A stretch of 64,000 bases of DNA from Saccostrea cucullata (lineage: Eukaryota). Of this stretch, positions 2,946-55,500 are shown in pieces (positions within the stretch are counted from its first letter, which is position 1; the number at the start of each line of letters is the position of its first letter). A program made the translations under genes and the position numbers. Under the pieces are notes generated by a model. It was not told where the DNA came from, did no database searches, and saw nothing but the letters and a program-made list of their open reading frames with translations. Location: the NCBI RefSeq assembly GCF_032062105.1, contig NW_026923980.1, positions 62,001 to 126,000 of the forward strand, read 5' to 3'.

Positions 2946-3269
2946 GGAAATGTTAATTCAGATTAGGAATTCAGAATTAAAATGAAAATAGACGCGTTAA
3001 TGTCTCCAAACAACCGTTTCTATGGCAACTGCCATAGAGTTACTATTAAATATATTTAAACTCTTTTTTAAATTTTAAATATTCATGAAGTGTCTATATT
3101 TTCATTTGTAATTTTCAACCAATTCCACTGAAAATAAATTAAATATGAAAAAATTCCACGAACTCCAGGAAACGTAAGAAAATGAACTTACCGTATTTTT
3201 TGTCCAGAATTAAATTTAAATGCTTAGATGTTTAAGAATATATATAACATGACAACAAAAGAGTTCTAC

Positions 3270-3285
3270 GAAATGAAATCGAAAC
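3270..3285 (+). promoter_or_regulatory. ISRE/IRF-element-like motif GAAATGAAATCGAAAC
   Basis: Triple GAAA, contains GAAANNGAAAC; TATAAATA at 3403; upstream of ZNFX1, an interferon-stimulated gene in vertebrates. Confidence 0.35.
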
Positions 3286-4254
3286 ACGTTTTTTAAAAAC
3301 CTTACTCAGCAACAATTGATTTTAAAATTGAGTGCAGTTTATTCAACTGCACTAAAGCATATCGTCAGTAGAAAAGATATTGATAATGAACCTAGTCATA
3401 CCTATAAATAAATCATTCACGTGCATTAGATATACCATTTGAATCTATGTATACTATAAAAGGTAAGCATAAAATAAAGTTTAAAAAACTGATATATTCA
3501 TTATAGATAATCCTACTCTTCCGTAAAATCCAGAACATGGTTTTTTAAAAACAAGGTGGATTGCGTAAATACATTTATTTTCCCCGAATCAATTAAGAAA
3601 GTAGAACATATGCTAGTATACATGATTTGGACCGGTCTACGTAATCTGATTTTGAATGTTACATACTTTTAGGGGCATCTTTTTCCTAAAGAAGGTAAGA
3701 ATTTATTAGTTTTTTATTATTAATGACATGAAAAGGTTCTACAGCTAAATCACAGAAACTTTGTGCATTTGTTTGTGAAACAACTTTTTGAATAGCTTAC
3801 CTTAAAAAAGGCAACATAAACTGATATAGAAAGAAATGAAAAAAAAAAGAAAATGTAAATGTAAAAAAAGTAATGATCTACATTCGCTAGATCTAGAGGT
3901 TGCAAAAATGCATGGTATGTACTTTGTCAAGATTTTAAAATATTTCCATAATTTCCCTAATTATAATTAAAACATCATATTTTTACTTTTTTATTTCCAT
4001 AATGAACTTCCAATTGTTCAAATCATGACAATTATAAGTTTAAGTTTTCCAATGTCCACAATACCCTGATAATAGGAGTAGATATCTATATCACAGACAG
4101 TATAAATTTATACAATCACAACTTCTCGGGCCTTTCCGACTAGCGGAAAAACGACCTCGAATGTATATGGTAGCCGCCATGACAACCCTCCTTTTTCACG
4201 AAATAAATGCATAGAGACCTGTTATCTGTGGAATATGGAGTTTAACTTTATTCA

Positions 4255-4600
4255 ATGAAGGATATGGAGATAACAAACAGTATTCAATCTCAAAGTCCAT
4301 TAAACAATATACAAAATCAGAGCAGAGCAAACACGGACCCCTGAAACATCAGAGATGGGATCGGGTGCCATGGAGGAGTGAGCATCCCCTGCCGACCGGT
4401 CACACCGGCGTGTGCTCGTTGTCATGATCAGGAAAAAACGGAAAAATCCGTCGTCAAATAGTGTATAAATAATGGACTAATAATTGGTATAAAAAACGTC
4501 AGTCAGCATTTGACTCAGTGTTAAATTGTATTTGCTGACAAGGTCATTATATCGACCATAGAACTTACGAACTAATGCCTTTAAACGAGACTGCTGAATG
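4255..4600 (-). mobile_element. Penelope-like retroelement 3' end fragment
   Basis: Close copy of 2580-2945; begins atgaaggatatggagataac as at 13803 and 47197. Confidence 0.7.
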
Positions 4601-5276
4601 TTATGAAATTACTTAGAATATACTATATAAGGGACTTCTAAATCTGTCTATCCTATATTTGAATAAACAGGAAGATGTAAAAAAATTTTAACATCCGATG
4701 ATGTTAATACATTCGAGGTTGTTTTTCCGACCTCTGACGGAAAAATCCGAGATGATGCGATTGAGTATAAATATATAGGGAAAGTCCATATATTTTTTTT
4801 AATGGAAGAATTGAATTGTTTATATGAATTAACAGCTTTTATTGTACGAGCAATTCAGTCTGTAAAGCTTAGATTTGGAGTTCGAGAAATTCAGCAATAG
4901 ACGTTTTATTTTCAATATCCTTAATATTCCTTAAATTGAGAATGGAAGGGGTTATCTCTTTAAAAGAACTCGATAAGTAGTGTTCCAATTTTCACTGGAA
5001 TAAAAATGCTAGGATTTATTACAAAAACTGGCTTATAGCCAAAAGAGCAATGTCCCGAATAATGTATATTACTAGTTTTTAACATTTTATATTTTATGCT
5101 TCCTGGTTCTGATCTATTTACACTTTAAAGAAACACACTATATTGTTGTGTTGCAGGATCCTGAAGTATAAGGTGAGATCATAACCGAGGATGATTATTC
5201 AGTCAAATGCAATTTCTCGGACAGAAAACTAGTAACCAGTTGACAAATTTTAAATTTGGATAGAAAGAAAATAAAC

Positions 5277-6380
5277 ATGGATTCCCGGAAGAGGAGGCAG
5301 GAACAAGATAATCGCCATACAAAGCGAATTCGATATGACCCTAACCCAGCAACGGAACGGAATGATAGTTTACGGCCATCTGAAATGTTGCAGGACAAGA
5401 AATATGAACGAAGTAGTGACTCAAGGCTTGCTTCTACGTCAAAGTCTAGTTATATGCCAACAAGAAAAAGCGCACAAAAAAGAAACACTATTTGGTCAAA
5501 AAGAGATAATGATTGTCCTTTCGATTTGAGAAAGAAACTTAAAGGTCATGCTAATCCACAAAGGTCTTCACACAGTTTAAGAAACTTGAACCACCCTTCG
5601 ACGGATTCTTGGGAAATAGAAACCAATCAAGACTGTTCTACATCCAGAACCAAGGCAAGCGTTTCTACACATAGAGAAGAATCACCAAGGACAAATTCAA
5701 GCTACAGAAAGAACAGCCCAAGATATAGGGCAAAGAGCCCTATTTATAGACCAACCAGTCCTAGCTACAGATCAACAAGTCCCAGCTACAAGTCGACCAG
5801 TACTAGCTACAGACCAACCAGTCCTAGGTACAAGCCAACCAGTCCTAGCTACAGACCAACCAGTCCTTGCCGCCACAGACCAATCAATTCTAACCACAGA
5901 CAAACCATTTCTAAAAACAGATCAACCAACCCTGGTCATAAACCAACCAGTTCTATTTACAAACCAACCAGTCCTATTATCAGACCAACCGGTTCTAGCT
6001 TCAAACCAAGTTCTATCCACAAACCAACCAGTCCTAGCTACAGACCTACCAGTCCAGACTTTAAACCAATCAATTCTAGCTATAAACAAATCAATCCTAG
6101 CTATAGACCAACCAGTCCTAGCTACAGACCAACCAGTCCTAGCTACAGACCAACCAGTCCTAGCTACAAACCAACCAGTCCTTGCTACAGACCACTGCGA
6201 CCAACCAGTTCTACTTGTGAACCATTTAACCATAGTTTCAGATCAGACCACAATCAAACTACTTTAGGACACATCAAAAATCAATCCTTCAATTCCATTC
6301 CGAGGGCACACACTATACAAAAGGGTACACATTTATCACCAGAAAAACAAGAGACATACAAGCTCAGACAGATTTCTTAA
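5277..6380 (+). CDS. ZNFX1: N-terminal segment of ZNFX1 paralog 1: low-complexity region with Pol II CTD-like Y[RK]PTSPS heptads; out of frame (+1) with the downstream helicase ORF
   Basis: ATG 5277 gives MDSRKRR..KRIRYD, TIWSKRDN, DLRKKLK, matching MNSRKRT..KKPRYE, PIWSSRGN, DLRDKLK at the N-terminus of paralog 2, which is continuous with its helicase; acceptor ttgcag| at 5156 is equivalent to ttgtag| at 15647. Confidence 0.7.
   Translation: MDSRKRRQEQDNRHTKRIRYDPNPATERNDSLRPSEMLQDKKYERSSDSRLASTSKSSYMPTRKSAQKRNTIWSKRDNDCPFDLRKKLKGHANPQRSSHSLRNLNHPSTDSWEIETNQDCSTSRTKASVSTHREESPRTNSSYRKNSPRYRAKSPIYRPTSPSYRSTSPSYKSTSTSYRPTSPRYKPTSPSYRPTSPCRHRPINSNHRQTISKNRSTNPGHKPTSSIYKPTSPIIRPTGSSFKPSSIHKPTSPSYRPTSPDFKPINSSYKQINPSYRPTSPSYRPTSPSYRPTSPSYKPTSPCYRPLRPTSSTCEPFNHSFRSDHNQTTLGHIKNQSFNSIPRAHTIQKGTHLSPEKQETYKLRQIS
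5703..6210 (+). repeat. 21-bp coding minisatellite (agctacagaccaaccagtcct), about 24 heptads
   Basis: Directly visible; translates to YRPTSPS/YKPTSPS and variants. Confidence 0.95.
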
Positions 6381-6420
6381 CAGCAATTCAAAACGAAAAC
6401 AAACAATACACAAAGGTGAC

Positions 6421-9400
6421 ATGATGCAGCGTTTTAAAAGAATCCAAGACTTCGATGGATTTAATTTGAAATATCTTGATGATCTTAAGTTGTTATTGGC
6501 ATCAGAAGAAAATTTCAGAGATGAAAATTTACAGTGTTTGATGAAAATGTTAGCCCATCTGTTCGAAGAACAAAACTCGGATGTGTGTGAAGCGTTGATG
6601 AAATTTGATTTCTTTGCACGAAAAGACCTTATGGCATTAATATCTGGTATTCTAGTTCGTTCTGAGCTGACAAATTCTGATGAAGAATTTATAAGACATT
6701 CCTATCAGGTACTGGTTGCTCTCTCCTTAGATACTACATTAAGGTCGAGTAAAGTGAAGGCGTTTTTGAATCTAATTCTTCATTTGGTTAGGCGTACAAA
6801 TAACCAGGAAAGGGAGAAAACTTTATCAGAAATATCAACACGATTGGACATGAAGGAAAAAAGAGAAAATTTAGAAGTCGATGAAAAAGGAGAAATTGTA
6901 TTCTCTGATTCAATGAAAAAAGAACTGTCTACCATGAGTCAATTCCAAATATTACCGACGAGTGCTATGATCCGAGACAAGGTTACCCCAAAACTGTTAC
7001 AAAGGGAGTTAAAACGTGCATCAAAGTCCCAGGCGCACTACCTTATAGAACAATTCTATCTGTTTTTGCAGGATTTCATTGGTCCTCTAAGACAAGGAAT
7101 AGAAGATTACATGGAACATGCTCTGAATCCCGACACAGAAAAGAGATTTCGCCACGAAAGTGTCAGGCTTTATGAAGGCATACATATTCTGGAGAGGAAA
7201 TGTGTTCCTGATTCCGGCATGGTAATAGAGATACAGTTTGAGGCAAAAGGATTTAAACGAATTCAGTGGGATTTTTGCAATTTTCTACAGTATGGAAACG
7301 TTGTCTGTTTAACTCACGGTAATTGTGATACACTTTTGTATGCATTAATTGCAGAACGAAACACCCAAAACCTGAAAAGGGGGAAAATTTCTCTGAGTTT
7401 GATAGGACAGATATTCCAAGAGGTTGAAGAAATGAAGAATGTGGCAAACGGACGCATTGTGATGCTGGAGAGTAAAGCCTTTTATACTGCATACCGGCAC
7501 ACCTTGGAGTCCATGCAATCTATGGCTAGAAATATGGTGCTTTATCCCAAAGATGCAAGAATTCCTTTTGCAAAGCATATTATTGACCTCAAAACTGATG
7601 TACTCGAACCTCTCTATAGCAGAAGTGAAGACGGTGAGGTCAAACTTGTAAACTTTGAATGCCTATTGAAGCCTGAGGAGTGCATAATGGACAAGGATTA
7701 CACAAGAGTACCGCTTCTTGATACAAGTATGTGGCCCTCAGCAGAGGAAGTAGGAATGGACGAACACCAGTACTCGGCGCTTAAACTCTGTCTTACAAAG
7801 AAACTTGGAATCTTACAGGGACCTCCTGGTACTGGAAAAACATGGATGGGTTTGAGAATTGCAGAATTTCTACTGAACAACAATCTTGGCCAGGAGGTGG
7901 GCGAAAAGAGACCCATATTGCTACTAAGTTATACCAATCATGCTCTTGATCAGTTCTTCAATGCATTATTTGATATGGATAGCCTCAGGAAACTTTTTTC
8001 AGGAACAACGCAACCCTTCGTCCGTGTGGGTTCACGAAGTAATGTTGAACGAATTCAGAACTGTACTTTGACAGAACACAGAAAGCAAATGAAAGGAAAC
8101 AGATCAAGATTTCAATGGAAGAATGGCATGAGACTAAAACAGGAGATATTTGAAATAGAGTTGTGGTTAGAGAAAATAAAGGACAGCATTGTGTCTCCTG
8201 TATTTCTGTTTAGAAATGAATACATTTCCGAGAATCATAGTCGATCACTTCAGGACAAACGTTATCTCTGCAATGGAACTGATATTGTTGCTATCATTTT
8301 TCAGTGGCTAGAAATAGGTCCTCGTGGCAGGGAGATAAGAGATTTCTCCAATGAAGCAAATACCGCAGATATTCCGAAAAATGAGCTGTGGGAGATGGAC
8401 GAAAACGATGAAGACCTTTTTATGTCTCATTTAGTAAGAAGGATTGTAGAAGATGCGGATGATTTGCGATTTGATCAAAAAGAGTGTCTTCAGAATGTTT
8501 TGTCAAACCTTCTTGTGACTAAAGAATTATTAATTCCTAAAAAGAAATCAACTCAACTGCACCCTTTCTGGCAATCTCTCGAACTTCGAGAGAGGGAACA
8601 GATATTGAGTTACATTTCCTTAAGATTGCGGTTGGATGTTGCCATGAACTTGTATGAAGCTCAAGAAGTTGCAAACGTTTGGTGTATAACCATTGAGGAT
8701 AGATGGCGATTATACAAGTTTTGGGTACAGCAATTTAAAGATTATCTTCTAAATAAAAGGAACGTACTTATGCTAGATTTCGAGATGGAAAATAGCAAGT
8801 ATTTAAAAGAGAAAACGGCTGAAAATATCAAAATAGTGTCGAGTTGTCATCTTGTTGGTATGACTACAACAGGAGCTGCACAAAATATTGACCTCTTGAA
8901 GAAGGTTCAACCAAAAATTATGATTGTTGAGGAAGCCGCTCAAGTTTTTGAACAGCACATACTAGGATGTCTTACAAAAGATTTACAGCACTTGATACTT
9001 ATTGGTGATCATCAACAGCTTCGACCTTCAATTAACAATTACCAATTATCAAAAACTCACAAAACAGATGTTTCGTTAATGGAACGACTTGTAATGAATA
9101 AAATGCCGTATGTGTGTCTTTCACAGCAACACCGAATGCGCCCTGAAATATCTTCAATGCTTACTCCCACGATTTACAAGAACTTGCAGGATCATTCAAG
9201 TGTGTTATCATATGATCATGTTCAAGGTATGAAACACGACATTTTCTTTCTTAATCATAAAAATCAGGAGAGCCAATCGGAATACTCAACCAGTCATAAA
9301 AATGAATTCGAGGCAGAAATGGTTGCAAGATTGTGTCGCTATTTATTGTTACAAGGATATAACAAAACCGATGTGACCATCCTAGCGACATACAACGATC

Positions 9401-11982
9401 AAGTAAAGTTAATCAGGAATTATGTAAAGAATTTGGAAAATGATTTACCAAACTCTAGACTTGATATTAAAGAAAAGATTGCAGTTACGGCCGTAGATAA
9501 TTTCCAAGGAGAAGAAAACAAAATTATTATATTATCTTTAGTAAGAGGAAACGACGAAAGAAAAATAGGTCATCTGCATGATATCAAAAGAATATGTGTT
9601 TCACTTTCAAGAGCAAAACAGGGTTTTTTTGTTATTGGAAACTTTCAAACCATTCGAAAAAGTAGGACCTGGAGTGAAATTATTTTAAAAGCAGAAGCAG
9701 ATAATATCTTTGGAAGTTATATTCCCTTGAACTGTTTTAATCATCCCCAGACTATAACAAAAGTATCCAAACCATCAGATTTTGATATGGTGCCAGTGGG
9801 AGGATGTAACGAGCCGTGTGGGTACCAGCTGAACTGTGGGCATGCCTGCGACTTGAAATGTCACGCGGATCCATCATACCATGATATGCCATGCAGGAAA
9901 ATTTGCGAAAAGGAAATGTGTGATAAAGGGCATAGATGCAAAAGAGTTTGTTCGCATCCTTGGTCGTGTGGACCATGTGGAACTCTAGTAACCAAGGTAT
10001 ACACGGAATGTAATCACAAAGTACAAGTAAAGTGTTCTATAGACTTAGAAACCTACCCCTGCCGAGAGAAATGTAGCAAAACAAATCCCTGTGGTCATAT
10101 TTGTCAACTAAATTGCGGTTGCAAATGCCAGCCAGATCAATGTTCAGTTCTAGTGCCAGTTGTTCACCCGAGATGTGGGCATGAAATAGAGGCTCCATGC
10201 TGTATACGTTCCAAACCAAAGAAAATAAAATGCAAGCAGAAATGTCAGACGATTCTGCCCTGTGGCCATGCATGCAAGGGGGACTGTTTCTCCTGTTCTA
10301 GTGGGAGGCTTCATGTGGTATGTGAGCAATTATGCCAGCGTGTCCTCGTGTGTGGCCATTCTTGTAACAATAAGCATTCATGCTCTACAGCTTGTCCACC
10401 TTGTAATAAACCCTGCATGTCCGGTTGTAATCATTTGGGAAAACGTGGTTGTCGTCGAAAATGTGGCGAAACATGTATTGATTGCAGGGAGCAATGTGAT
10501 TGGAAATGCGATGAAAATTGCGAAAACCAATATCGTTGCCAAAAGCAATGTTTTGAAAAATGCGATAGACCACGTTGTAACAGAAGATGTAACCGAGATT
10601 TGCGATGTAAGCATCGTTGTGTAGGTTTATGCGGTGAGCCCTGTCCTAGGCTGTGCAGAAGATGTAACAAAGAGGAATTAACAACAATTTTCTTTGGGGA
10701 AGAGGACGATCCTAAAGCATTGTTTATCGAACTAGAAGACTGCAAACACGTCTTTGAAGTGAACGGCTTTGACAAGTTCATGGAAATGGAGGTGGAAAGA
10801 AATGATGAATCGGTTTCAGAAAGCCATGCAATAAAACTTCTGCGATGTCCTTTATGCCAGACACCAATACGACGCAGTAAAAGATACAAAAACATTATAA
10901 TACAAAATTTAAAGGATATGAATGCCGTGAAAACAATTGAAAAAGAGAAAGTATGTACCTTGAACGCCAAAGAGACTTTTGAGGAACTCTCTAAATTTAA
11001 CGAAGCTTATGAAATTTTGAGATTTAAATTAAATTTAACCAAACAGTATTACGACTTTGAATTCTCAAACAAACAAGCTGAAAAATTGTTTACTTTCTTA
11101 GTTCCAAAATATAAAGAAAGGTTTGATAAAATGATGGGAAAATCCTCAGAAGAAACTACTGAAATCGTAGACCAATTTCAAATGCTTACTGAATGGCTTT
11201 TGCGACACAGACGTACGATGTTTACCGAATACGAGGTCAAGCAATTCAGTGAAGAAGTAGACAGATTCTTTCTATATGTAGACTATGCTTTGCTCGTTCA
11301 ACAAGTGGATTCAAATAATCCATCCCAAGTGACCGAAGAAGACAGAAACACACTTAATGAGCAAGTAGTTAACCTAAGATGGCCAATCCCTAAGCAACTG
11401 GAAATAGAGGATATATTACATTCCAAAGAGATCCTAACGACCATGCAAGAAAAGCTACCACTTACTGGTCTAGGAATATCAGATAAGGAGAAGGCAATGA
11501 TTTTGAAGGCGTTTAACTTTTCCAAGAAAGGACACTGGTACAAGTGCAAAAATGGTAAGAATTTTTCTTTTATGCAGTAAGAAATGAAAAAGATCAAAGA
11601 CTGCAACGTTTCACATGACAGTTTTGACAATATTTAATCCCAACTTTTCAGTCTTGTAAGACCACATTTTCTTAATATATTTGAATCATAAATCAGCCAA
11701 AGAAACAGTTCGCCGTTTAATATGAAAAGTGTTCTAGGTTTCATTAATATTTTTTGTTATTGAATGTTTTATTTGATTTTCACAGGTCATATTTACGCTA
11801 TAGGGGACTGTGGCGGAGCGATGGTGGAGTCTAAATGTCCAGAATGCGATGAAACGATTGGTGGGTCTCGACATCAGTTGCGGGGAGACAACGAGGTTGC
11901 TGGAGAAATGGACGGCGCAGCCTTTTCAGCCTGGTCTGAACAAGCTAACATGGCCAATTACGAAATTGATGATAGATTTTGA
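6421..11982 (+). CDS. ZNFX1: NFX1-type zinc finger-containing protein 1 (ZNFX1) paralog 1: SF1/UPF1-like helicase, NF-X1 Cys/His zinc fingers, RING-like region, C-terminal RZ finger
   Basis: GPPGTGKT, VEEAAQ, LIGDHQQLRP, QHRMRPEI, VDNFQGEE, RICVSLSRAK; long CGH-rich array; exons (6268)6421-11554 and 11786-11982 (AAT G|gtaaga..ttttcacag|GT CAT) give HWYKCKNGHIYAIGDCGGAMVESKCPECDETIGG. Confidence 0.93.
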
Positions 11983-15752: not shown

Positions 15753-18700
15753 ATGAACTCTCGTAAAAGAACAAAAGGACAAAAAGAGCCTTCCCATAAA
15801 AAAAAACCGCGCTATGAACATGATTTAAGGGAAATAAATTCCAAAAAAGACGAGAACAGCTCGGGGCAAAATCATGTACCTGAACTTGAAGAGATTCTGG
15901 GAGGGCATACCAGCATACAGTTGGAAGATACACGAATTTCAAAAATAAACAGAAGCACCCTATCAAATAGCCCAATCTGGTCAAGCAGAGGCAATACGGG
16001 CGTTTCCGATGGATTAAATGGTTCCTACACACCATATCATCCAAAAACCTTTAAAAGTAGTACTCACAATACACTAGGCGATCTCAGGGACAAATTAAAG
16101 TCTAAAAGAAACAATGCAAACACTTCAGGGGACGTAGGCGTGGTAAAAAATAATTCAGAAGAACAACGATTAAATAGTTCTAGTAGATCAGATGGAACTA
16201 GACAAAAGAATGGTTATGATGATTTTTCTTGTAAAGTAACTGATGACAATTTCAGAAGCAAATTGGATGATCACCTTGTAGACAGATCGGTTATTTCTTC
16301 AGGCGGAATAAATTATGCGTATACCAGACAAGAGTGCAATCAGAGAAAAGGTGCAGAAAGTTCGATTGCTTATAATAACAATAATAAACATATGTCGAAT
16401 CTACCAAAAGAGAAAATGGTTGTCTCAGAAAACAAGGCAGGTACACTCAGTGCCAAGTCAAGAACAGATGATAAGAAAGATTTACAGGTATCAAGCAATT
16501 CCAGAAAAATATCAGAAACCAGTCGTAGACCTAGTCTTGATGATCAGTTTCACCACAGAAAGGTGTTAATCCATAGCAGAGATAGTCCAAGTGACATTCT
16601 TAATGCCTTAATAGACTTTAAAATATTGCCCACAAGTAAAATGATCAGAAATGAAGAGGCTCCACCACTACCGAAAAGACAGTTACGCGTCGCATATAAG
16701 TCCCAAGAAGACTACCTTGCTGAACAATTCTATCTGTTTGTTGAGGACTTTCTTGGTCCACTGAGGCAAGGAATAAAGGAATTCATGGCAAATACATCAA
16801 ATTCTTTAGAAAATGGAAACGAAAAATTTAGACCCAAAAGTATAAGAATTTATGAAGGAGTACATATTCTAGAACGAAAGTGTGTCCTTGATTCTGGAAT
16901 AGTTGTTGAAATTAAGTTTGATACAAAAAAACACAAGTTGGTTAAATGGGATTTCTGTAGCTTTTTGAAATATGGAAATATCGTTTGCTTAACATACGAC
17001 AATTGTGACACACTTCTTTATGCATTAATCGCAGAGCGAAAAACTAAGAACTTGAAAGAGGGGAAAATTTCCCTGAATATAATTGGTAAAAAATTTTCCG
17101 CTTTTGAAGAAATGAAGGCAGCTGCAAACGGAAGGATTGTTATGCTGGAAAGCACATCCTTCTATACTGCCTACCGACATACAATTACGTCAATGAAATC
17201 AATGGCCGAAAGAATGCTCCGCCGTGAAAGAGAAGTTATTCCGTTCTCAAAATATATTGTCGATCTCAAAACCCGTATCGCTGAACCTCGTTACAGCATA
17301 TTAAGTAATGGTGATTTCGATTGTTTAGTGCGAGATAAGGCAATGAAACATAATTATAGCAGAGTACCACTCCTCAAAACAAAACATTGGCCAAAAGCAG
17401 AAGAATTAGGCATGGACGGAGACCAACACAGGGCGCTTAGACTCTGTCTCACCAAAGAGCTTGGAATTTTACAAGGACCCCCAGGAACAGGCAAAACATG
17501 GATGGGACTAAAGATCGTAGAGTTTATGATAAATAACAGACTTGGATGCAGTGAACGAGGAAGGAACCCCATATTGTTGCTTAGTTATACTAATCACGCG
17601 CTCGATCAATTTTTCAATGCTTTATTTGATATTGAAAGTCTTCAAAAACTATTACATCGATCAGAACCACCATTTGTTCGCATTGGTTCGCAGAGTAATA
17701 TCGAAAGAATTAAAGCGGTCAGTCTAACAGAGATCAGGAAAAAACAAAGGCATAGCAATTCAAAAGCACACCGAAAAAACATTTTCGATTTAAAACAGAA
17801 GTTGCATGAGAACGAACTGTGGAAAGAGAAGACCAAGAGCAGTGTCATTTCTCCAGATCATTTGTATTCCAAGGGATGCATTTCAAAAGAACATATAGAT
17901 TCGCTCAAGCAGCAAGGCGCCGATTACAAAAAAATTATTTTCGAATGGCTTGAATTAAAAAATCCAACCTTTAGTGATTCAGTCTTAACAACGAACTTCA
18001 CGGTTAATCAAAATAATCAAATAACACTTGATGCAGACGATGAAGAAGACTTCAAATCACAATTGGTTGAAAGAATTGTGGATTATGCTGATGATCTGCA
18101 CTTTGACGAAAAGAAATTTCTTCGGGGAGTGTTATCAAATCTAGTTGTGTCTGAGGAGCTTCTGGTTCCTAAAAAGGAATCATTCTTGCATCCTTTTTGG
18201 AAAGCACTCAGCTTAAAGAACAGAGAGAAAATACTAAAATATGTCTCCATGAGATTCCGTCTTTATGGCGAAATGATGGAGAAGGAAGTAAATAAAGTTA
18301 AAAATGTTTGGGAACTTTCTATCGATGATAGGTGGAGGCTCTACAAGTTCTGGAGAGGGAAATTTCAAGAACTGCTTCGTCAAGAAGAAATCACACTAAT
18401 GCAAGAATTTGAAGAGAAAAACAAAATATACCTAAAAGAGAAAAAAATTGATGATATTAAAATCGTCTCTAACTGTTTTCTTGTCGGCATGACAACAACA
18501 GGAGCTGGGATGAATATCCTACAAGAAGTGCTTCCCAGAATTGTCATTGTGGAAGAAGCGGCTCAGGTCATGGAACAACATATTTTAGGTTGTCTGACGA
18601 AAAACGTAGAACATCTTATACTCATAGGTGATCACCAACAACTCAGACCAGCCGTTCACAATTATGAATTGTCAAAAACTCACAAAACTGACGTTTCCTT

Positions 18701-19700
18701 GATGGAGAGACTAGTGTTAAATAGAATGCCATACGAATGTCTTTCACAGCAACATAGAATGCGTCCAGAAATATCTGCAATGCTTACTCCCACTATATAC
18801 AAAACACTGCGAAATCATCCAAGTGTATTAGACTATGAACGTATTCGAGGGATAAAGAACGATATTTTCTTTTTTTGCCATACAAATCGAGAGAGCCAGT
18901 CAGAGAACTCAACAAGTCATAAAAATGCATTTGAGGCAGAGATGATTGCAAGATTGTGTCTATACTTGTTCTTACAAGGATATAGCAAGAAGGGCATAAC
19001 CATTTTATCTACTTATAAAGATCAGGTCAAAGTGATCAGGCACTGTATAAAGTCAGCAGAAGACAAAATATCCCATAAAATATATGACAACAAAGGGAAA
19101 ATTTCAGTTACCACAGTCGATAACTTTCAAGGTGAGGAGAATGAAATCATTTTACTTTCACTGGTAAGAAGTAATGAAGAAATGAAAATCGGTCATTTGA
19201 AAGACACAAAACGAATATGCGTTGCACTTTCCAGGGCTAAAAATTGTTTGTTCGTCTTTGGAAACTTTCAAAGCATTCAGAAAAATGAGACCTGGAAAAA
19301 AATAGTTTTTAAAGCGAAAGATGATGGAAATTATGGAAACAGCATCTTGCTAAAGTGTGTCAATCATCCAAATAAAACGACAGAGGTATCTAAACCAGAG
19401 GATTTTGACATGATCCCATTTGGAGGATGTGGCAAACCATGTGGTTACCGGCGAGAGTGTGGTCATATATGCGACTTGACATGCCATGCTATTGCTGCCT
19501 ACCATGAAAGACCTTGTGAAGTGTTGGTGAGAAAAGTACACCCAAGATGTAAACACGAACTACGACTTAGATGTTCCACAAGGTTACGGACACCTCTCGG
19601 ATATATAAGTTGTCGCGTGTGTGAAAAAGATTCTGGCCTTCCGTCCTCGTCTGAGGCCCAACCTGATCAGGATCGGGATCCGATGTCGTCACCATGGTGA
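15753..19700 (+). CDS. ZNFX1: ZNFX1 paralog 2, single coding exon, helicase with truncated zinc-finger tail (1315 aa)
   Basis: Same helicase motifs as paralog 1 with high visible identity; only a few NF-X1-type Cys/His clusters, no RING-like or RZ region before the stop. Confidence 0.9.
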   Translation: MNSRKRTKGQKEPSHKKKPRYEHDLREINSKKDENSSGQNHVPELEEILGGHTSIQLEDTRISKINRSTLSNSPIWSSRGNTGVSDGLNGSYTPYHPKTFKSSTHNTLGDLRDKLKSKRNNANTSGDVGVVKNNSEEQRLNSSSRSDGTRQKNGYDDFSCKVTDDNFRSKLDDHLVDRSVISSGGINYAYTRQECNQRKGAESSIAYNNNNKHMSNLPKEKMVVSENKAGTLSAKSRTDDKKDLQVSSNSRKISETSRRPSLDDQFHHRKVLIHSRDSPSDILNALIDFKILPTSKMIRNEEAPPLPKRQLRVAYKSQEDYLAEQFYLFVEDFLGPLRQGIKEFMANTSNSLENGNEKFRPKSIRIYEGVHILERKCVLDSGIVVEIKFDTKKHKLVKWDFCSFLKYGNIVCLTYDNCDTLLYALIAERKTKNLKEGKISLNIIGKKFSAFEEMKAAANGRIVMLESTSFYTAYRHTITSMKSMAERMLRREREVIPFSKYIVDLKTRIAEPRYSILSNGDFDCLVRDKAMKHNYSRVPLLKTKHWPKAEELGMDGDQHRALRLCLTKELGILQGPPGTGKTWMGLKIVEFMINNRLGCSERGRNPILLLSYTNHALDQFFNALFDIESLQKLLHRSEPPFVRIGSQSNIERIKAVSLTEIRKKQRHSNSKAHRKNIFDLKQKLHENELWKEKTKSSVISPDHLYSKGCISKEHIDSLKQQGADYKKIIFEWLELKNPTFSDSVLTTNFTVNQNNQITLDADDEEDFKSQLVERIVDYADDLHFDEKKFLRGVLSNLVVSEELLVPKKESFLHPFWKALSLKNREKILKYVSMRFRLYGEMMEKEVNKVKNVWELSIDDRWRLYKFWRGKFQELLRQEEITLMQEFEEKNKIYLKEKKIDDIKIVSNCFLVGMTTTGAGMNILQEVLPRIVIVEEAAQVMEQHILGCLTKNVEHLILIGDHQQLRPAVHNYELSKTHKTDVSLMERLVLNRMPYECLSQQHRMRPEISAMLTPTIYKTLRNHPSVLDYERIRGIKNDIFFFCHTNRESQSENSTSHKNAFEAEMIARLCLYLFLQGYSKKGITILSTYKDQVKVIRHCIKSAEDKISHKIYDNKGKISVTTVDNFQGEENEIILLSLVRSNEEMKIGHLKDTKRICVALSRAKNCLFVFGNFQSIQKNETWKKIVFKAKDDGNYGNSILLKCVNHPNKTTEVSKPEDFDMIPFGGCGKPCGYRRECGHICDLTCHAIAAYHERPCEVLVRKVHPRCKHELRLRCSTRLRTPLGYISCRVCEKDSGLPSSSEAQPDQDRDPMSSPW

Positions 19701-23833: not shown

Positions 23834-34510
<10,677 letters not shown>

Positions 34511-37813: not shown

Positions 37814-38740
37814 GATGTTTAAGCCCCACGTCCCCGTCGTAGGAGGTGGAAACGGGTAATGCCAGCTAACGGGGCTACGCCTGCAGCATGGGGCCAGTCA
37901 CCCCTTCTGTGGTAAACACTGACTACAGAAACAGAAAAACAGAGAAACGTATCACCTGGTTCTTCAGTGGGTAACATCAGAAACGAAAGCATGACGTCTA
38001 GTCAGGAAAATTATCAGAGAACTAGTAGACTGAGAAGCTTCCTTCTGAGACCAAACAAGAACATCAACATAGCAGCATGGAATGTGCAGACTACGTTTGA
38101 AATTAGCAGAGCAGCACAGATTGCCAAAGAGATGAGGCAATATTGATTGATTGTTTATTGTTTAACGTCCCTCTCGAGAATTTTTCAATCATATGGAGAC
38201 GCCACCACTTGCCGACGGAGAGCTGCAAATTTTGTCCTATACTCGGCACTTAGGGCCATTGAGCAGGGGAATCTTTTTCGTGCCAGCACCTACTGCGACA
38301 CGGGACCTCGATTTATACGGTCTCATCCGAAGGACCGGTCTCCAACTTTGAAACTGAGAGTGTTTGTAAATCGTTGCCTACGGACCATATTTAAGATCAG
38401 ATGGCCAAAAATAGTGTCTAACAATGAACTCAGGGAGATTTCAGGACAGGAAGACATTGTGGTAGAGATTGTAAGAAGAAAGTGGAGATCGGACATGTGC
38501 TCAGAAAAGAACCAGCATAATATCACAAGAGAGAACATTTTCTGGACAGCCGACGGCAAGAGAAAAAGGGACAGGCCAAAAACAACATGGCGAAGAACAT
38601 CAGAGAAAGAGCTGAACGATATAGGGCTGATGTGGAAGGAAGTAGAAAGAAAAGCAAAGGATAGGACTGGTAGGAGGGACTGTGTGGCTGCCTTATGTGC
38701 CACCTGGCACGAAGAGGCCTAACTAACTAACTAACTAACT
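37814..38740 (+). mobile_element. Internally deleted RTE-clade LINE
   Basis: Endonuclease start NIAAWNVQT..AQIAKEMRQY; C-terminus RCLRTIFKIRWP..VAALC; (CTAA)n tail; approximate TSD actataa(a/g)gcct. Confidence 0.8.
38145..38342 (-). mobile_element. tRNA-SINE 3' part
   Basis: Near identical to 63302-63490. Confidence 0.8.
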
Positions 38741-45744: not shown

Positions 45745-46875
45745 TTAACTGGACTCAGTATCATACTGACTTGTACAATTAGTAAATGGAATCAGTTTCT
45801 GACCTGTACAGTCATAAAATGATTTCAGCTGCTTTAAAAATCTGACATCAGAAAATGAATAGATAACTGGGTTAATCACATTATTAACCAGGAATATCCA
45901 CACAAAGGTATAATAAACCACACTGCCGCTAAAGGACATGTTACACTCCGTCTCCGGAAACAAGAAGATGACCAAAGCTAAACAGTGATGCGGGAACGCT
46001 GACACAAGGTAACCAATGGTTACCGATAGAAGCGTAATGGTGGTCCGTCGGAGCCGCTGGTACTTGTGGTTCTTGACGGTTTTATCCGAGTGCTGGTTTC
46101 CAGAACCGTTCAACTTGTCCAAGTCTACTGAGAGAGAGTGCATTGATTCAGAGTGCATGGTAAAGTTAACGTGGTTCTTCACGACTTTCCAAATGAAATG
46201 ATACAGTATCACGAGAGTGGTCAGGATCAAAATGAATAGTGACGTCAAAATGACGTTAAACACTGCGGTAAACGGTGTATTTTTGAATTTATCTTCAATG
46301 TAACACCGGTGTCCAGTCAAATTATTGACCGGTAAAGGCACATTCCTCCCCCCGTACAGAATCGGTGCCGGCCAAGCAAACACTAAACCTGAAAATAATC
46401 CCGCCAAACATATTCGAAATGTCTGCTTTTTGGTCCATTGACGCTTGAAAGGTGTCTTAATTTTTCTGTATCGATCAACCGCAACAATAACCAAGATTAT
46501 CGTTGATGCAATGCTCACATAATACAAGAAGAACCGGTATACCTTGCAAAAGAAGTCGTTAAAGAACTCGAGAGGAAAACTGAGGTAGACGATCGTCAGA
46601 GGCATACTAATAGTGGAGTTTGTCATGTCCAGGGCCCCCAGAAATAAGATGTAAGTTCTATAGGACGACCTCTTGTATCGAAGCAGATACACCATCAGAA
46701 CGTGAAAGTTTCCAATAACTCCAACTATACAAAGCACCGTGACAAAGATGATGCCACCGAAATTCCGGGCTCTGAATCGGGTGTTGACGTCATCTAACGT
46801 GGCATTGCTCGGAAGATCCTCCTCCTCCAACCAAGCGTAACAGTGCTCCTGTTGGAGAGAGCTATTGTCCGCCAT
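45745..46875 (-). CDS. Intronless class A (rhodopsin-like) GPCR, peptide/orphan receptor-like, 376 aa
   Basis: Seven hydrophobic segments, GN in TM1, DRY after TM3, NPVIY in TM7, N-terminal N-glycosylation sequons. Confidence 0.92.
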   Translation of the reverse strand: MADNSSLQQEHCYAWLEEEDLPSNATLDDVNTRFRARNFGGIIFVTVLCIVGVIGNFHVLMVYLLRYKRSSYRTYILFLGALDMTNSTISMPLTIVYLSFPLEFFNDFFCKVYRFFLYYVSIASTIILVIVAVDRYRKIKTPFKRQWTKKQTFRICLAGLFSGLVFAWPAPILYGGRNVPLPVNNLTGHRCYIEDKFKNTPFTAVFNVILTSLFILILTTLVILYHFIWKVVKNHVNFTMHSESMHSLSVDLDKLNGSGNQHSDKTVKNHKYQRLRRTTITLLSVTIGYLVSAFPHHCLALVIFLFPETECNMSFSGSVVYYTFVWIFLVNNVINPVIYSFSDVRFLKQLKSFYDCTGQKLIPFTNCTSQYDTESS

Positions 46876-47194
46876 TTTGTCGGTGCCCCAGGAATTGAAT
46901 CCCCTTATAGATTTTCACTATATGTTCACAAAGAATATTATAAAACACTTTTCCCAAGACAGAGAGTCATATCTGATGTAAATTGATATTCTATCAACGT
47001 TAGGATACCGGAATTTCCGTTCAAATACAACACACAGTGGGAGATACTTCCGCTGGAATTTCTTGTAAACAGGTGTTGATTAAATCGCTTTTTATTTCGT
47101 CAGCGCGCGTGCACTTGTTAAGAGGAAGTTAGGGTTTCCGCGTGCTCGGTTGAGACTCTCCAAATAATACAATTATGTCATTTATATGTACTTT

Positions 47195-49886: not shown

Positions 49887-51668
49887 TTAAATAAGTATAT
49901 CTTTATTGATTTGACTGAAATTGGGAGGTGTCGAGTGGACCCCTTTCTTGTTTTCCAGGAGAAGGTTTAGCACTGGATACAAAATATCCCCTCTTCTAAG
50001 GTATAAGCACAAACGGTAGAATCCTTTTTTTGGCAGAAGTGACTTCAGTTTGACCTCCGAGAGACTGCTGTCTGTCCCCATATAGTCGTCAAAGTTCCGG
50101 CCATCCTCCAACCACCTCAGAGAGGCGTACACATCGAGCATTGTCTTTGTAGAGATGGACAAATCCAAACTCCCATCCTTCACTTCTTGGAAGGCTGGTG
50201 GAATGGCACACATTTCGTCCGTGAATTCTGGAAATCTGGGTTCGATTCCCCATGACTGGTATTCCTTTGGAAACTTACGCAGGTGCTTCTTTACTGAGGA
50301 GCACGTGACAAGGAACTCGGTGATTGGTTCCATTCTTGTGCTTGAAAGTTTACCGAGAATAGTCAGGCGGAAGTTACCGACAAACGGGGGTCTGACGTTC
50401 ACAAAATAGGAGTGGGATCCGCCCCGAGAGATGAAAACGAATTCATTGTGGGCGAGACCGTCTTCTGAACTTAAGACTGCGGCGAAATCAGTCAACACAG
50501 CTTGTGTGTCGTCCACAGAAACAATAAAAGAATGGCGAACGTTTACAACCCGGGTCTTTGGAAACACTACCCGAACACCACGCGCGATCGCGGACTCAGA
50601 TATAAGAGGTGCTAGGTTGAACTGCTCAAGTGTAATAGGCTCTGTTAATAACTGCCAGAACTGGTCGATATCAAGTGGAAAATGATTGCTGATGAATTGC
50701 TGTGGGTCAGGTAGAAAATAGAAAGATTCTAAACGAATATCACTGGCGCCACATTGACAGTCAACCACGTGCCACTTTCCCGCCAAATTAACGATGTTCC
50801 AGCTGTGGTCTCCATGGATATTGGGGTTTGCGTTTGTCTGATCCGCTGGAACTTTGTGGAAACCTTTGACTATCTTTGATTCAATATTCGCAACTCTATG
50901 GAGAAAAAAATTGAATGAATAACCAGCAATGACAATTTGTATGTATTTAAACCAGATATTCATTCCACAGGTACTATAAAATATTTTCTGTGTGGACAAT
51001 GTATTTACCTAGTGAGTGAATTGAACTTCTCTGTTAGACTCCCATGCCCTTTCCTCTCATCATTTGAAAGTGCTTGTATTTGACTATAAAAAGATTTTTA
51101 AAAATCATAATAAATTTTATAGCTTCTCTTAGAATATTCAAATATTTCAGTGAATATTAAGTATAAAATTACGTTTTGTTGGTGATAATCCACGTATAAA
51201 ATGCACGTATTTTGTTTACGTCATCATTTGTCCCCTCACAAAGATAGGCGACAAGATCATCATCTGACGTCATCAGCCTTTTTGGTGCCTATAAATGAAT
51301 TTTGAATTTTATTATCAACGACGTCATAAAATGAGATCATTTGGGAATAAGCATCACGAAAAATTAAAGGTTATTGCATTAGTAAGTCACTTTAAACAGT
51401 CTGAAAAGAAATTAATCTCGGATTATGAGATTAATATTTTGAAGGCATTATTTTCTCACCATAGTGTGTCAAAACTGCTACCTTTTGAAATTAAAGTTAA
51501 TAATCGTCAATTTAAACTTTTAGCACTGAAAAAAAAAAACACTATTTGGCTCACCTTTCTCGCATGATCATCTATAGCGGCAAACTTGTCCTCCGACTCA
51601 GCCCTCGGGCAATCCCCATTCAAGTCGGTATGAGAGGGATGTATTCGTTTGGATGAGGCAGATCCCAT
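49887..51668 (-). CDS. Kyphoscoliosis peptidase/hillarin-like transglutaminase-fold protein, 437 aa, 4 exons
   Basis: Exons 51555-51668, 51173-51288, 51009-51083, 49887-50895 (1314 nt, GT-AG, in phase); MGSASSK start, KIRAFYTWI, HSWNIV..WHVVD, FYFLPDPQQFISNHFP..WQLL. Confidence 0.85.
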
Positions 51669-52599: not shown

Positions 52600-55500
52600 T
52601 TATTGAGGATTCAAAGATCTTTGCAGGAAATAGGGCAGCTTGATGTCACGGCCAACGGGTGGACTCTACAAAAAAGAAACAGGTAACATTAATTAATTTG
52701 CGTCTGGCAAGATACATGTATCTGATTTGGTTTTTACAAGCACATTTAGTTAAATCAATTGAATGACATTTAAATCAATTAATATTAACACTTGAATAGG
52801 AAAGAAACTAAAGTGTATGTACTCCCCCGTGTTCTTTATACTTATTTATTTTGATCATGATCTTTGGTCAATAAATTGTAATAATATTTTGTAAATTAAA
52901 AGCTCATCCCCTCTTCGTTTATAAATATACGTACGGAATTTGCTGACAAGGTCATTGTATATCGGCAAAGGAACTTGCGAAACAATTACTTTATATCCTT
53001 GTTATATCAACTTCTTTGTCAATTTTCATAACTTGCTTAGTTTTAAAATTGATCTGATATAGATAAGAAAACAGGGGAGAATAGATGAAAGACGTCGTTG
53101 TATCTGATCAGATAACGTTACGTGGAACACATAATGTGGTAAACGAACATGAAAACCATGACAAGAGGCGGGAATATGAGACACGTGATGAGGTAAACTA
53201 ACGCGAACACAATGACAAGCGGCGGGAATATGGGACACGTGATAAGGTAAACTGATGCGAACACAATGAAAAGAGGCGGGAATATGGGACACGTGATGAG
53301 GTAAACTAACACGAACACAATGACAAGAGGCGGGAATATGAGTTATGATTGGATAAACTGACAAGAGGCGGGAATATGGGACACGTGATTAGATAAACTT
53401 ACGTGAACACCATGACAAGAGGCGGGAATATGGAACACGTGATGAGGTAAACTGTAATCTAGGTTTGTGAAGAAATATGTGATCTCCTCAATAGCTGAAA
53501 ATGGGGAAAAGAAGGGGAAAAAAATAAATGATTATGTTTATAAAAAAAAACTCGTCAGTACATTTAAAAAATGTAGATAAAATTAATGCTACTTTTAATT
53601 AGAATTTTATTATTTTGATCGACAATCACATCAGCTCCATAAGAGATGATTCGGCATTACCTCCTTCAATGACGCCGTACGATGACGCCGAGATGGGGGT
53701 ACAGTCGTCTGCTGTAACAGAGATCTTCATGGTGATGTTAGCGGCCTTTGTAAGATCGGCGACGAAGGAGTTGACTCTGACGCCATTACTAGCAGGTCCC
53801 AATATACGGGACTCCACGAATGTAGATGTCGCTATTAACAGATATCAAGAAATACTTATTTTCTGAAATAGATACTCTTTAAGTATAAGAAAATCAACAA
53901 AATATACAGTAAGACGACATTATTTACCGGGTACACACGGTTCTTGCATTGGTTGATTGTGAAGACGAGTTACATAACAAGTTCCCGAAACAATAGAGCG
54001 CGCTATTTGCTGAAAGAAAAAAAAACCGATAAGCATTATTTTCTTACATGAGCTTTCTTCAAACTCATCTGTTTGCTATGAGATAAGTGTCTGCTTAGTT
54101 GACTTATAGTGTATCTTACAGTGAGGTTGTATGTCTATGACCATGTAACCCATCTCTTTACGGTCAACGTACAAAGTGAGGTTGTAGGTTGAATTTATGA
54201 CTACTATAATATCACTTACATCTTTGTAATCGACATACACAGTGAGTTTGTACGTCTAGGATCACGTATAAAGTGAGGTTGTATGTCTAGGATTATGTAA
54301 TGTACATTTACCTACCTCTTTATAATCGACGTACACATTGAGGTTGTATGTCTAGGTCCACGTAATGTATATGGACAACCCTTTAATAATCGACGTAAAA
54401 AGTAAGTTTATAATTTTAGGATGACGTATAAAGTTAGGTTGTGTGTCTGGGATCACGAAATGTACATAACCCATATCTTTATAATCGACGTACAGTGTGA
54501 GGTTGTGTGTCTGAGATCACATATAAAATGAAGTTGTATGTCTAGGATCATGTAATGTATGTTACCTCCTAATAACCCACATGTACAGTGAAAATTGTAT
54601 GTCTAGGAGTACGTACTTCCTTATAATCGACGTACATAGTGAGGTTGTATGTCTAGAATCTCTACCTTTCTCTTTCTAATCGACGTACACAGTAAGGTTG
54701 TATGTCTATAGATTCATGAACACAGTAAAGTTGTATATCTAGGATCATGTAATGTACATTACCCACCTCTTGATAGTCGACATACACAGTAAGGATGTAC
54801 ATGTATGTCTAGGATCATGTACATACTGAGGTTGTATGTCTAGGATCACGTGCACATTAAGGTTGTATGTTTAGAATCACGTACAAAATGAGGTTGTATG
54901 TTTAGAATCACGTACATAGTGAGATCGTTTGTCTGGGAGCACGTGCTCCTTGACAATCGGCGTACACAGTAAGGCTGTATGTTAGAATTACTACCTTTCT
55001 CTTTTATAATCGACATACACAGGTATAAATCGGATCACGTACATAATAAGGTTGTATATCTAGGATCATATACTGTACATTACCTACCTCGAGCTCTTTA
55101 TTGACAACGTAAACAGTAAAGGTCTTTTGTCTAGGATAACGTACCTCTTTATAATCGACGTACACAGTAAGGTTGTATATCTAGGATCGCTTACCTCTTT
55201 ATAGTCGACATACACAGTGAGGTTGTATGTCTAGGATCGCGTACCTCTTTATAGTCGACATACACAGTGAGGTTGTATGTCTAGGATTACGTACACAGTA
55301 AGGTTGTATGTCTAGGGTCGCGTACCTCTTTATAGTCAACGTACACGGTGAGGTTGTATGTCTAGGATCGCGTACTTCTTCATAGTCGACGTACACAGTG
55401 AGGTTGTATGTCTAGGATTCTTTATAACTGACGTACACAGTAAGGTTGTATGTCTAGGATCGCGTACCTCTTTATAGTCGACGTACACAGTGAGGTTGTA

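Follow-up and report, generated by a model that had tools for sequence, protein, structure and literature searches.

The 64,000-nucleotide stretch of Saccostrea cucullata DNA analysed here (the window) carries on its forward strand a ZNFX1-type gene, the body of which (6421..11554) was delimited with Pfam profiles and motifs and extends from a helical N-terminal domain through a Cys-rich zinc-finger arm. It includes the ZNFX1 domain (7150-7476, +; PF25396, 70.8 bits, cut-off 27) and the AAA_11 and AAA_12 helicase lobes (7756-9642, +; Pfam E-values 9e-24 and 7e-42), with the Walker A motif GPPGTGKT at 7819-7842 (+). The core is that of a UPF1-like SF1 helicase: Walker A, Walker B and motif VI were located and are intact. 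A 231-nt GT-AG intron (11555..11785, +), seen as a spliced joint in the X1 contigs, precedes the last coding exon (11786..11982, +), in which alignment to mammalian ZNFX1 placed an RZ-type zinc finger. The Cys and His of this finger are 21 residues apart, the spacing of C1860 and H1881 reported for human ZNFX1 (10.1101/2025.09.05.674436); PF20173 is listed for P0001. At the 5′ end RNA contig X2 points to a likely 5′-UTR intron (GT..AG, 3694..5156, +), with the coding exon beginning at 5157. The loose end of this contig at 5155 resembles the sequence preceding the GT at 3694, and no joint is listed. The upstream blocks 754-2899 and 3169-5079 are duplicates of 78-93% identity, and contain a stretch that resembles the likely first exon.

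The ORF of the body matches the S. cucullata protein XP_062603583.1 at 100% identity. The NCBI gene model begins at Met 6421, without heptads, and the public model is short of about 360 N-terminal residues. In our trees, which are unrooted and weak in the deep forks, the gene was placed in a separate mollusc ZNFX1 clade (SH-aLRT 99-100).

Upstream of the body lies ORF A (5277..6380, +; TAA at 6378-6380), which encodes, as assembled, a basic, predicted disordered N-terminal region of 367 residues. Its net charge is +45, and AlphaFold2 run on the single sequence predicted no fold (mean pLDDT 44). ORF A matched no Pfam family, PF05001 included; a PF05001 profile search of the genome gave no match anywhere, controls included, and so carries no information. 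ORF A used as a protein query retrieved no oyster fragment, and the ESM Atlas returned no usable match.

The main feature of ORF A is an array of heptads resembling those of the RPB1 C-terminal domain (CTD). The initial annotation had put about 24 of them at the N-terminus of ZNFX1, and 24 units were confirmed at 5703..6206 (+), with the consensus Y-[R/K]-P-T-S-P-S. Read in the frame from ATG 5277, the array consists of 23 seven-residue units, one six-residue unit and one extra codon; Tandem Repeats Finder reported 21.3 copies of a 21-bp unit at 5748-6194 (score 394). Position 2 is basic in all 23 heptads (Arg in 15, Lys in 8), as had been claimed, but the further claim that all other positions are retained held only in part: Y1, P3, S5 and P6, by which tandem CTD heptads were judged, are kept in 16, 16, 16 and 17 of the 23, T4 in 17 and S7 in 11. 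Exact Y[RK]PTSPS occurs in 5/23 units, and 12/23 match at least six of the seven positions. Ser2, the first residue of the Ser2-Pro3 pair of the Pol II CTD, is present in none of the 23 units (in 5/28 in S. echinata). Basic residues outnumber acidic ones 31 to 2 among the 166 array residues, and ORF A contains seven RPxSP and four KPxSP sites. A search of the six frames of the window for Y-x-P-[TS]-S-P gave ten matches, all ten inside the array, and all eight matches of the array DNA unit in the 1.17-Gb genome fall at this locus (control, 0).

In the window as assembled the tail is not fused to the helicase. The heptad frame closes at TAA 6378-6380, and the helicase ORF (6268-11580) lies one frame over, behind its own stop at 6265. 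The break coincides with 13 nt at 6296..6316 (+) that are present in the assembly and absent from contigs of other individuals. Without these 13 nt, the heptad frame continues as the helicase frame. Five runs, which stem from five studies (X1, X2, X7, X8 and X10), have contigs that span the break, and all five are in frame. X1, X2 and X8 each have one 909-nt contig covering 970 window bases, i.e. 61 nt fewer, and X7 and X10 carry the same shorter form; the difference is made up of 3 nt at 5871, 45 nt at 6167-6237 and the 13 nt at 6296-6316. A second, more divergent X8 contig apparently also lacks the 13 nt (loose end at 6303, judged by eye). X2 is RNA-Seq on record and the other four are presumed RNA, X1 showing the spliced 231-nt joint. 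The contigs stand about 3-5% or more apart from the window, and their source may be a diverged population or a sister species. Two further runs, X24 (raw RNA) and X15 (presumed DNA), gave no depth at the break.

The same fusion is found in the S. echinata ortholog (XP_061166000.1, 2053 aa), which has 28 in-frame heptads. Position 2 is Arg in 18, Lys in 5 and Ser in 5 of these, three units are perfect YSPTSPS, Y1, P3, S5 and P6 are kept in 26, 24, 22 and 27 of the 28, and there are 11 RPxSP sites. The heptad consensus is alike in the two species, the bodies of which are 87% identical, and the S. echinata linker maps to the heptad frame of the window at 6234-6263 and to its helicase frame from 6349. 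The fusion proposed in the initial annotation is thus missing from the assembly, where it is out of frame, but is borne out by the in-frame contigs and by the ortholog. We conclude that the translated CTD-like tail on this ZNFX1 paralog is real and is broken only in the S. cucullata assembly; the window copy is either a frameshifted (null) allele or an assembly error.

Splicing-out of the array was considered and rejected: no GT-AG joint across it was found in the seven sequencing runs aligned, and contigs read through. Because contigs run through the array, the objection that it might always be spliced out, raised in the initial annotation itself, fails. The other objection raised there, that the array drifts like a neutral minisatellite, was answered for the frame but only partly for the sequence. 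The eight other coding indels listed (-3, -45, +3, +21, +21, -357, 84 and +123) are all multiples of three; four of them are not multiples of the repeat unit, for which chance would be about 1 in 81, with the proviso that joints in repeats may be assembly shortcuts. The same may apply to one X10 contig that lacks 17 heptads. Within the array pN/pS was 0.69, or 0.86 with transition bias (26 synonymous and 59 non-synonymous differences among units). These values are close to neutral, and the middle units have decayed; the ratio obtained for RPB1, 0.34-0.41, is raised by serine switches between TCN and AGY codons, which makes it an imperfect control. The contig-window differences listed at 5602-5895 (at least 14) include 5 synonymous and 9 non-synonymous changes, three restoring the heptad consensus and two losing it. 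Position 2 is restricted to R, K or S in 51/51 units of S. cucullata and S. echinata, units that are not independent of each other.

Two further elements were recognized in front of the array. Residues 4-19 of ORF A (5286..5333, +) match the classical bipartite nuclear localization signal (NLS) pattern, two basic clusters 9-13 residues apart (RKRR, spacer, KRIR), and this NLS-like motif is also present in the S. echinata ortholog and in both neighbouring paralogs. A conserved motif, N-x-[IV]-W-S-x-R-x-N (5484..5510, +), is common to paralog 2 and to the Ostrea and Crassostrea orthologs. Homology of the start of ORF A to the N-terminus of paralog 2 had been asserted; by BLASTP the similarity is not significant (E 0.35), but the K5-R6 and W-S-x-R-x-N motifs are shared, and K5-R6 and W73-S74-x-R76-x-N78 are invariant in 5/5 aligned N-termini.

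NLS-like motifs were then counted in the first 300 residues of 80 ZNFX1 rows, using patterns based on the importin-alpha literature that were relaxed after the oyster sequences had been seen. The motif is present in 21/24 rows of the mollusc clade of the gene (2.8 expected from shuffles), in 5/5 of the P0313 clade, in 1/26 vertebrate-type rows and in 4/25 others; the rows were grouped by hand and are not independent, many being close kin. Among 135 further ZNFX1 representatives 15 have such motifs. Of the six array lineages described below five have one; the exception, P0443, may be an incomplete sequence.

Neither neighbouring paralog contains heptads, in agreement with the claim that the array is paralog-specific. 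Paralog 2 (15753..19700, +; 1315 aa) has an NLS-like motif; its frame ends early in the zinc-finger arm, with no RZ finger in that frame, and the stored model (P0009) omits the first 296 residues. Paralog 3, just upstream of the window on the opposite strand (1819-aa model), likewise has no heptads; it stands head to head with the array gene (L011, G000 C6117, minus strand), carries an NLS-like motif and is conserved among the oysters. In the orthologs of the array gene from S. echinata, Ostrea and Crassostrea the N-terminal extension is uninterrupted. A single degenerate heptad unit stands at the corresponding place in the Ostrea edulis ortholog, and the C. gigas and C. virginica orthologs have no heptads. 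By these comparisons the array is specific to one paralog and to the genus Saccostrea. Since the Crassostrea and Ostrea orthologs lack it, the array is dispensable.

The codons of the array are homogeneous, unlike those of oyster RPB1, and the array differs from any oyster RPB1 unit in at least 5 of 21 bases. For these reasons it most likely grew locally from a seed unit, as judged from the DNA. A recent DNA copy from oyster RPB1 was rejected (mismatches at least 5/21 and 18/63), and so was a mobile minisatellite, the DNA unit matching this locus only. Minisatellites of 21 bp with long open frames are common in the S. cucullata genome; the Y-x-P-[TS]-S-P unit was found in none of ten other such loci that were translated. 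A degenerate di-heptad pattern has 37 matches in the oyster genome, of which 30 fall in RPB1, 5 in the array gene and 2 in the copies of one other locus. Oyster RPB1, with its own CTD, is on contig C21863, and the array of the window is not attached to it. The third locus (L046/L052; C5933 near 5185 and C6732 near 8600) consists of two identical copies, each with some six degenerate units of YSPTSPG type in short frames.

CTD-like arrays were also found on other ZNFX1 proteins. Two of the 120 ZNFX1 matches of a heptad-free query carry arrays: Babylonia areolata ZNFX1 (11 N-terminal units, three of them perfect YSPTSPS) and P0047 (6 internal units). The oyster genome has tens of thousands of genes, and an incidence of about 2 in 100 among ZNFX1 proteins is, with length allowed for, far above the genome background; none of 2400 shuffles, in which the first 800 residues were scored, yielded three or more heptad units. 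Queries bearing heptads, which favour array carriers and Arg2, retrieved P0313 and P0333, with 24-25 units in register, mostly YRPSSPS, and 19 RPxSP sites in P0313. Two 4-unit arrays (P0497 and P0443) were found among the best 150 representatives, from which P0079, P0047 and P0313 are missing, so the survey is not exhaustive. The arrays of P0079 and P0047 are Ser2-rich and have no DYRK motif. Three arrays are internal, at distances of 123, 125 and 142 residues ahead of Walker A; the distance for a seed unit in Littorina is 120.

On an unrooted 63-row tree (quick LG+G4 with SH-aLRT support only; 64 rows had been chosen by hand, and one without a Walker A match was dropped) the fewest changes that account for the seven array carriers number six. 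Six or more distinct lineages of ZNFX1 carry CTD-like arrays, which occupy just two sites in the protein. Arg or Lys at position 2 occurs in 0/3391 heptads from the 101 RPB1 proteins that an Arg2-rich query retrieved, and in 50/299 heptads of non-polymerase arrays.

The reading that we favour, with a probability of roughly 0.45, is that the CTD-like tail brings a likely nuclear ZNFX1 to sites of Pol II transcription, and that phosphorylation of Ser5-Pro6 releases it. The bipartite NLS-like motif would import the protein into the nucleus, where the periodic tyrosines, aided by Arg/Lys2, would bind weakly and multivalently to Pol II/Mediator compartments and to nascent RNA. CDK7-type or DYRK-type kinases would phosphorylate Ser5, Arg2 making the sequence R-P-x-S-P, and thereby loosen the binding. 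Arg2 would at once remove the elongation mark, add charge and create a DYRK1A motif, and the loss of Ser2 would keep the tail from passing as an elongating polymerase. The enzyme could then unwind and ubiquitinate aberrant, transposon or viral RNA in the nucleus.

Several published observations fit this scheme. An NLS-GFP-CTD fusion was reported to enter Pol II transcription sites by itself (10.1101/448506), and the NLS plus heptads of the oyster ZNFX1 would, by analogy, be the same design. Periodic Tyr1 residues are described as anchoring the CTD on Mediator, SP phosphorylation as releasing it, and CDK7 as preferring Ser5 (PMC13377220). The DYRK1A motif is given as RPXS/TP (PMC10952393). ZNFX1 is reported to polymerise and to act as a helicase and E3 ligase upon activation by RNA (PMC13710534, 10.1101/2025.10.14.682297, 10.1101/2025.09.05.674436). 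We favour the phospho-switched tail acting at transcription sites because of the targeting by NLS-GFP-CTD, the Tyr1/Mediator anchoring, the DYRK motif made by Arg2, the biochemistry of ZNFX1 and the predicted lack of a fold in ORF A, together with the in-frame fusion, the NLS-like motifs and the recurrence of arrays on ZNFX1. The near-neutral pN/pS, the orthologs without an array, the abundance of 21-bp minisatellites and the broken allele of the window count against it. Targeting to Pol II sites is known for real CTDs, and the oyster tail consists of Arg2 heptads that are known here from sequence.

Part of the same evidence would serve a tail that has no link to transcription. The array could be a kinase-switched condensate or RNA-binding tail, its CTD likeness being a by-product of physical grammar; we consider this unlikely but a serious rival. 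ZNFX1 polymers or granules could be tuned by Tyr/Arg repeats whose Ser-Pro sites are of DYRK or MAPK type, in line with the high net charge and the RPxSP sites of ORF A (7), S. echinata (11) and P0313 (19). DYRK3 reportedly dissolves condensates, both stress granules and speckles (PMC10952393), and ZNFX1 is described as forming polymers and entering stress granules (PMC13710534, 10.1101/2025.10.14.682297, PMC11959080). This account leaves unexplained, however, the exact seven-residue period with Y1, P3, T4, S5, P6 and S7, the perfect YSPTSPS units of S. echinata and Babylonia, and the Ser2-rich arrays of P0079 and P0047; moreover, the Arg2 composition of P0313 is a biased sample, since P0313 was found with an Arg2-rich query. 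As probable, and as serious a rival, is a tolerated coding minisatellite, in which a chance Y-x-P-T-S-P-S seed was amplified by slippage and only the frame is selected. The pN/pS of 0.69-0.86, the homogeneous codons unlike those of RPB1, the single seed-like units in the Ostrea ortholog and in Littorina, the many 21-bp arrays in the genome and the lack of an array in most orthologs all suit it. Against it stand the absence of the Y-x-P-[TS]-S-P unit from the ten other minisatellite loci translated, the arrival of six distinct ZNFX1 lineages at one heptad in two places of the protein, and the restriction of position 2 to R, K and S in 51/51 units, dependent as these are.

The initial annotation had offered either a decoy or a phospho-regulated condensate module. 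Of a module that forms condensates or acts as a phospho-switch we can say that it is plausible. A decoy, in which a phospho-Ser5 tail lures CTD-binding viral proteins to the E3 ligase for ubiquitination, seems to us improbable. It would make sense of Ser5-Pro6 as the retained half of the heptad, and an arms race would be in keeping with arrays that are quickly gained and lost; no oyster virus protein is known to bind the CTD. Influenza polymerase is reported to bind the Ser5-phosphorylated CTD directly (PMC4907247). ZNFX1 genes were reported to be induced by OsHV-1 in the Pacific oyster, with no paralog named (10.64898/2026.05.15.723513). Least credible, by a wide margin, is that the array lies outside the protein, the gene making only the helicase from Met 6421 and ORF A being an upstream frame or a relic. 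This is true of the S. cucullata assembly as written, but all contigs spanning the break lack the 13 nt, and the N-terminal extension is continuous in the S. echinata, Ostrea and Crassostrea orthologs.

A broader and decidedly tentative proposal is that animals repeatedly evolved a portable Pol II tail which, together with an NLS, carries a cytosolic RNA-surveillance helicase/E3 ligase to transcription sites in the nucleus. Invertebrates would in this way have a nuclear branch of ZNFX1 directed against transposons and against viruses that transcribe in the nucleus. From the proteins retrieved, the same heptad module may be in wide use on parts of ubiquitin ligases. The label of an antiviral dsRNA sensor, attached to the gene in the initial annotation, was carried over from vertebrate ZNFX1; the oyster gene appears to belong to a separate mollusc clade with NLS-like motifs.

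Comparison with known systems defines what is particular to the oyster protein. It shares with human ZNFX1 the ZNFX1 domain, the helicase lobes, the zinc-finger arm and the RZ Cys/His pair, and in both a disordered region precedes the helical domain, the first 140 human residues being described as disordered/unresolved (PMC13710534). It differs by its place in a separate mollusc clade and by its NLS-like motif and heptads; the human protein is reported to be cytosolic (PMC11959080). Like the RPB1 CTD, the array has a seven-residue period, a similar copy number (24-28), the Y1/P3/T4/S5/P6/S7 consensus and, in S. echinata, some perfect YSPTSPS units; unlike the CTD, it is N-terminal on a helicase, has Arg/Lys2 and is confined to the genus. 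Yeast Sen1, with a CTD mimic that is an acidic single motif, provides the nearest precedent (PMC7110113). Sen1 is likewise a UPF1-like helicase with a CTD mimic in a disordered region and acts on nuclear RNA, but the NIM of Sen1, Trf4 and Mpp6, read by the CID of Nrd1, is reported as a single acidic mimic of phospho-Ser5 (PMC7110113), whereas the oyster tail has basic tandem true heptads that would need a kinase. The acidic stretch before a Tyr-containing hydrophobic motif that characterizes the NIM is lacking in the oyster array. Each Arg2 heptad matches the RPXS/TP motif reported for DYRK1A substrates (PMC10952393), but in the literature searched no tandem heptad array of such sites was found on ZNFX1.

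The statement that no description of this fusion was known agrees with our literature search, in which nothing joining ZNFX1 with YSPTSPS or with a heptad was found, subscription papers being mostly outside its scope; searches on CTD-like or CTD-mimic proteins likewise found no tandem array on ZNFX1. The recurrent heptad arrays on ZNFX1 are apparently an undescribed pattern. The study of metazoan ZNFX1 by Blasi et al. 2022 (PMID 35063603) may describe such N-termini. Three ZNFX1 genes were reported in Aplysia, and the accessible part of that paper does not mention repeats (PMC9334734).

CTD heptads are as a rule regarded as a property of RPB1 alone. Natural arrays with Arg/Lys2, arisen several times on one enzyme family, offer a test of heptad targeting versus the transcription code, and an undescribed, probably nuclear class of mollusc ZNFX1 would be relevant to defence against oyster herpesvirus. 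Heptad-bearing Mytilus proteins are mislabelled RPB1: in five Mytilus species (P0122, P0126, P0127, P0128 and P0130) a MATH-domain protein has a C-terminal, near-perfect YSPTSPS array, two of these proteins being annotated as RPB1-like and two as USP7/UBP15. Among 58 non-RPB1 heptad proteins found, 14 have RING (6), BTB (3) or MATH (5) domains, and NLS-like motifs occur in 12, where shuffles would lead one to expect 2.2. The matches of the heptad searches also included Arabidopsis KH proteins and a grass serpin.

Elsewhere in the window, the minus strand carries a single-exon rhodopsin-family GPCR (45745-46914; 7tm_1, E 3e-27) and an ORF with KY-like immunoglobulin domains (49887-51008; PF23265, E 4e-13). 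A 191-aa frame on the plus strand (38147-38722) has no Pfam match and presumably resembles the end of a LINE reverse transcriptase. Tandem Repeats Finder located two complex minisatellite blocks, at 31654-32162 (periods of 27, 95 and 149 bp) and at 53127-55863 (31, 50 and 81 bp).
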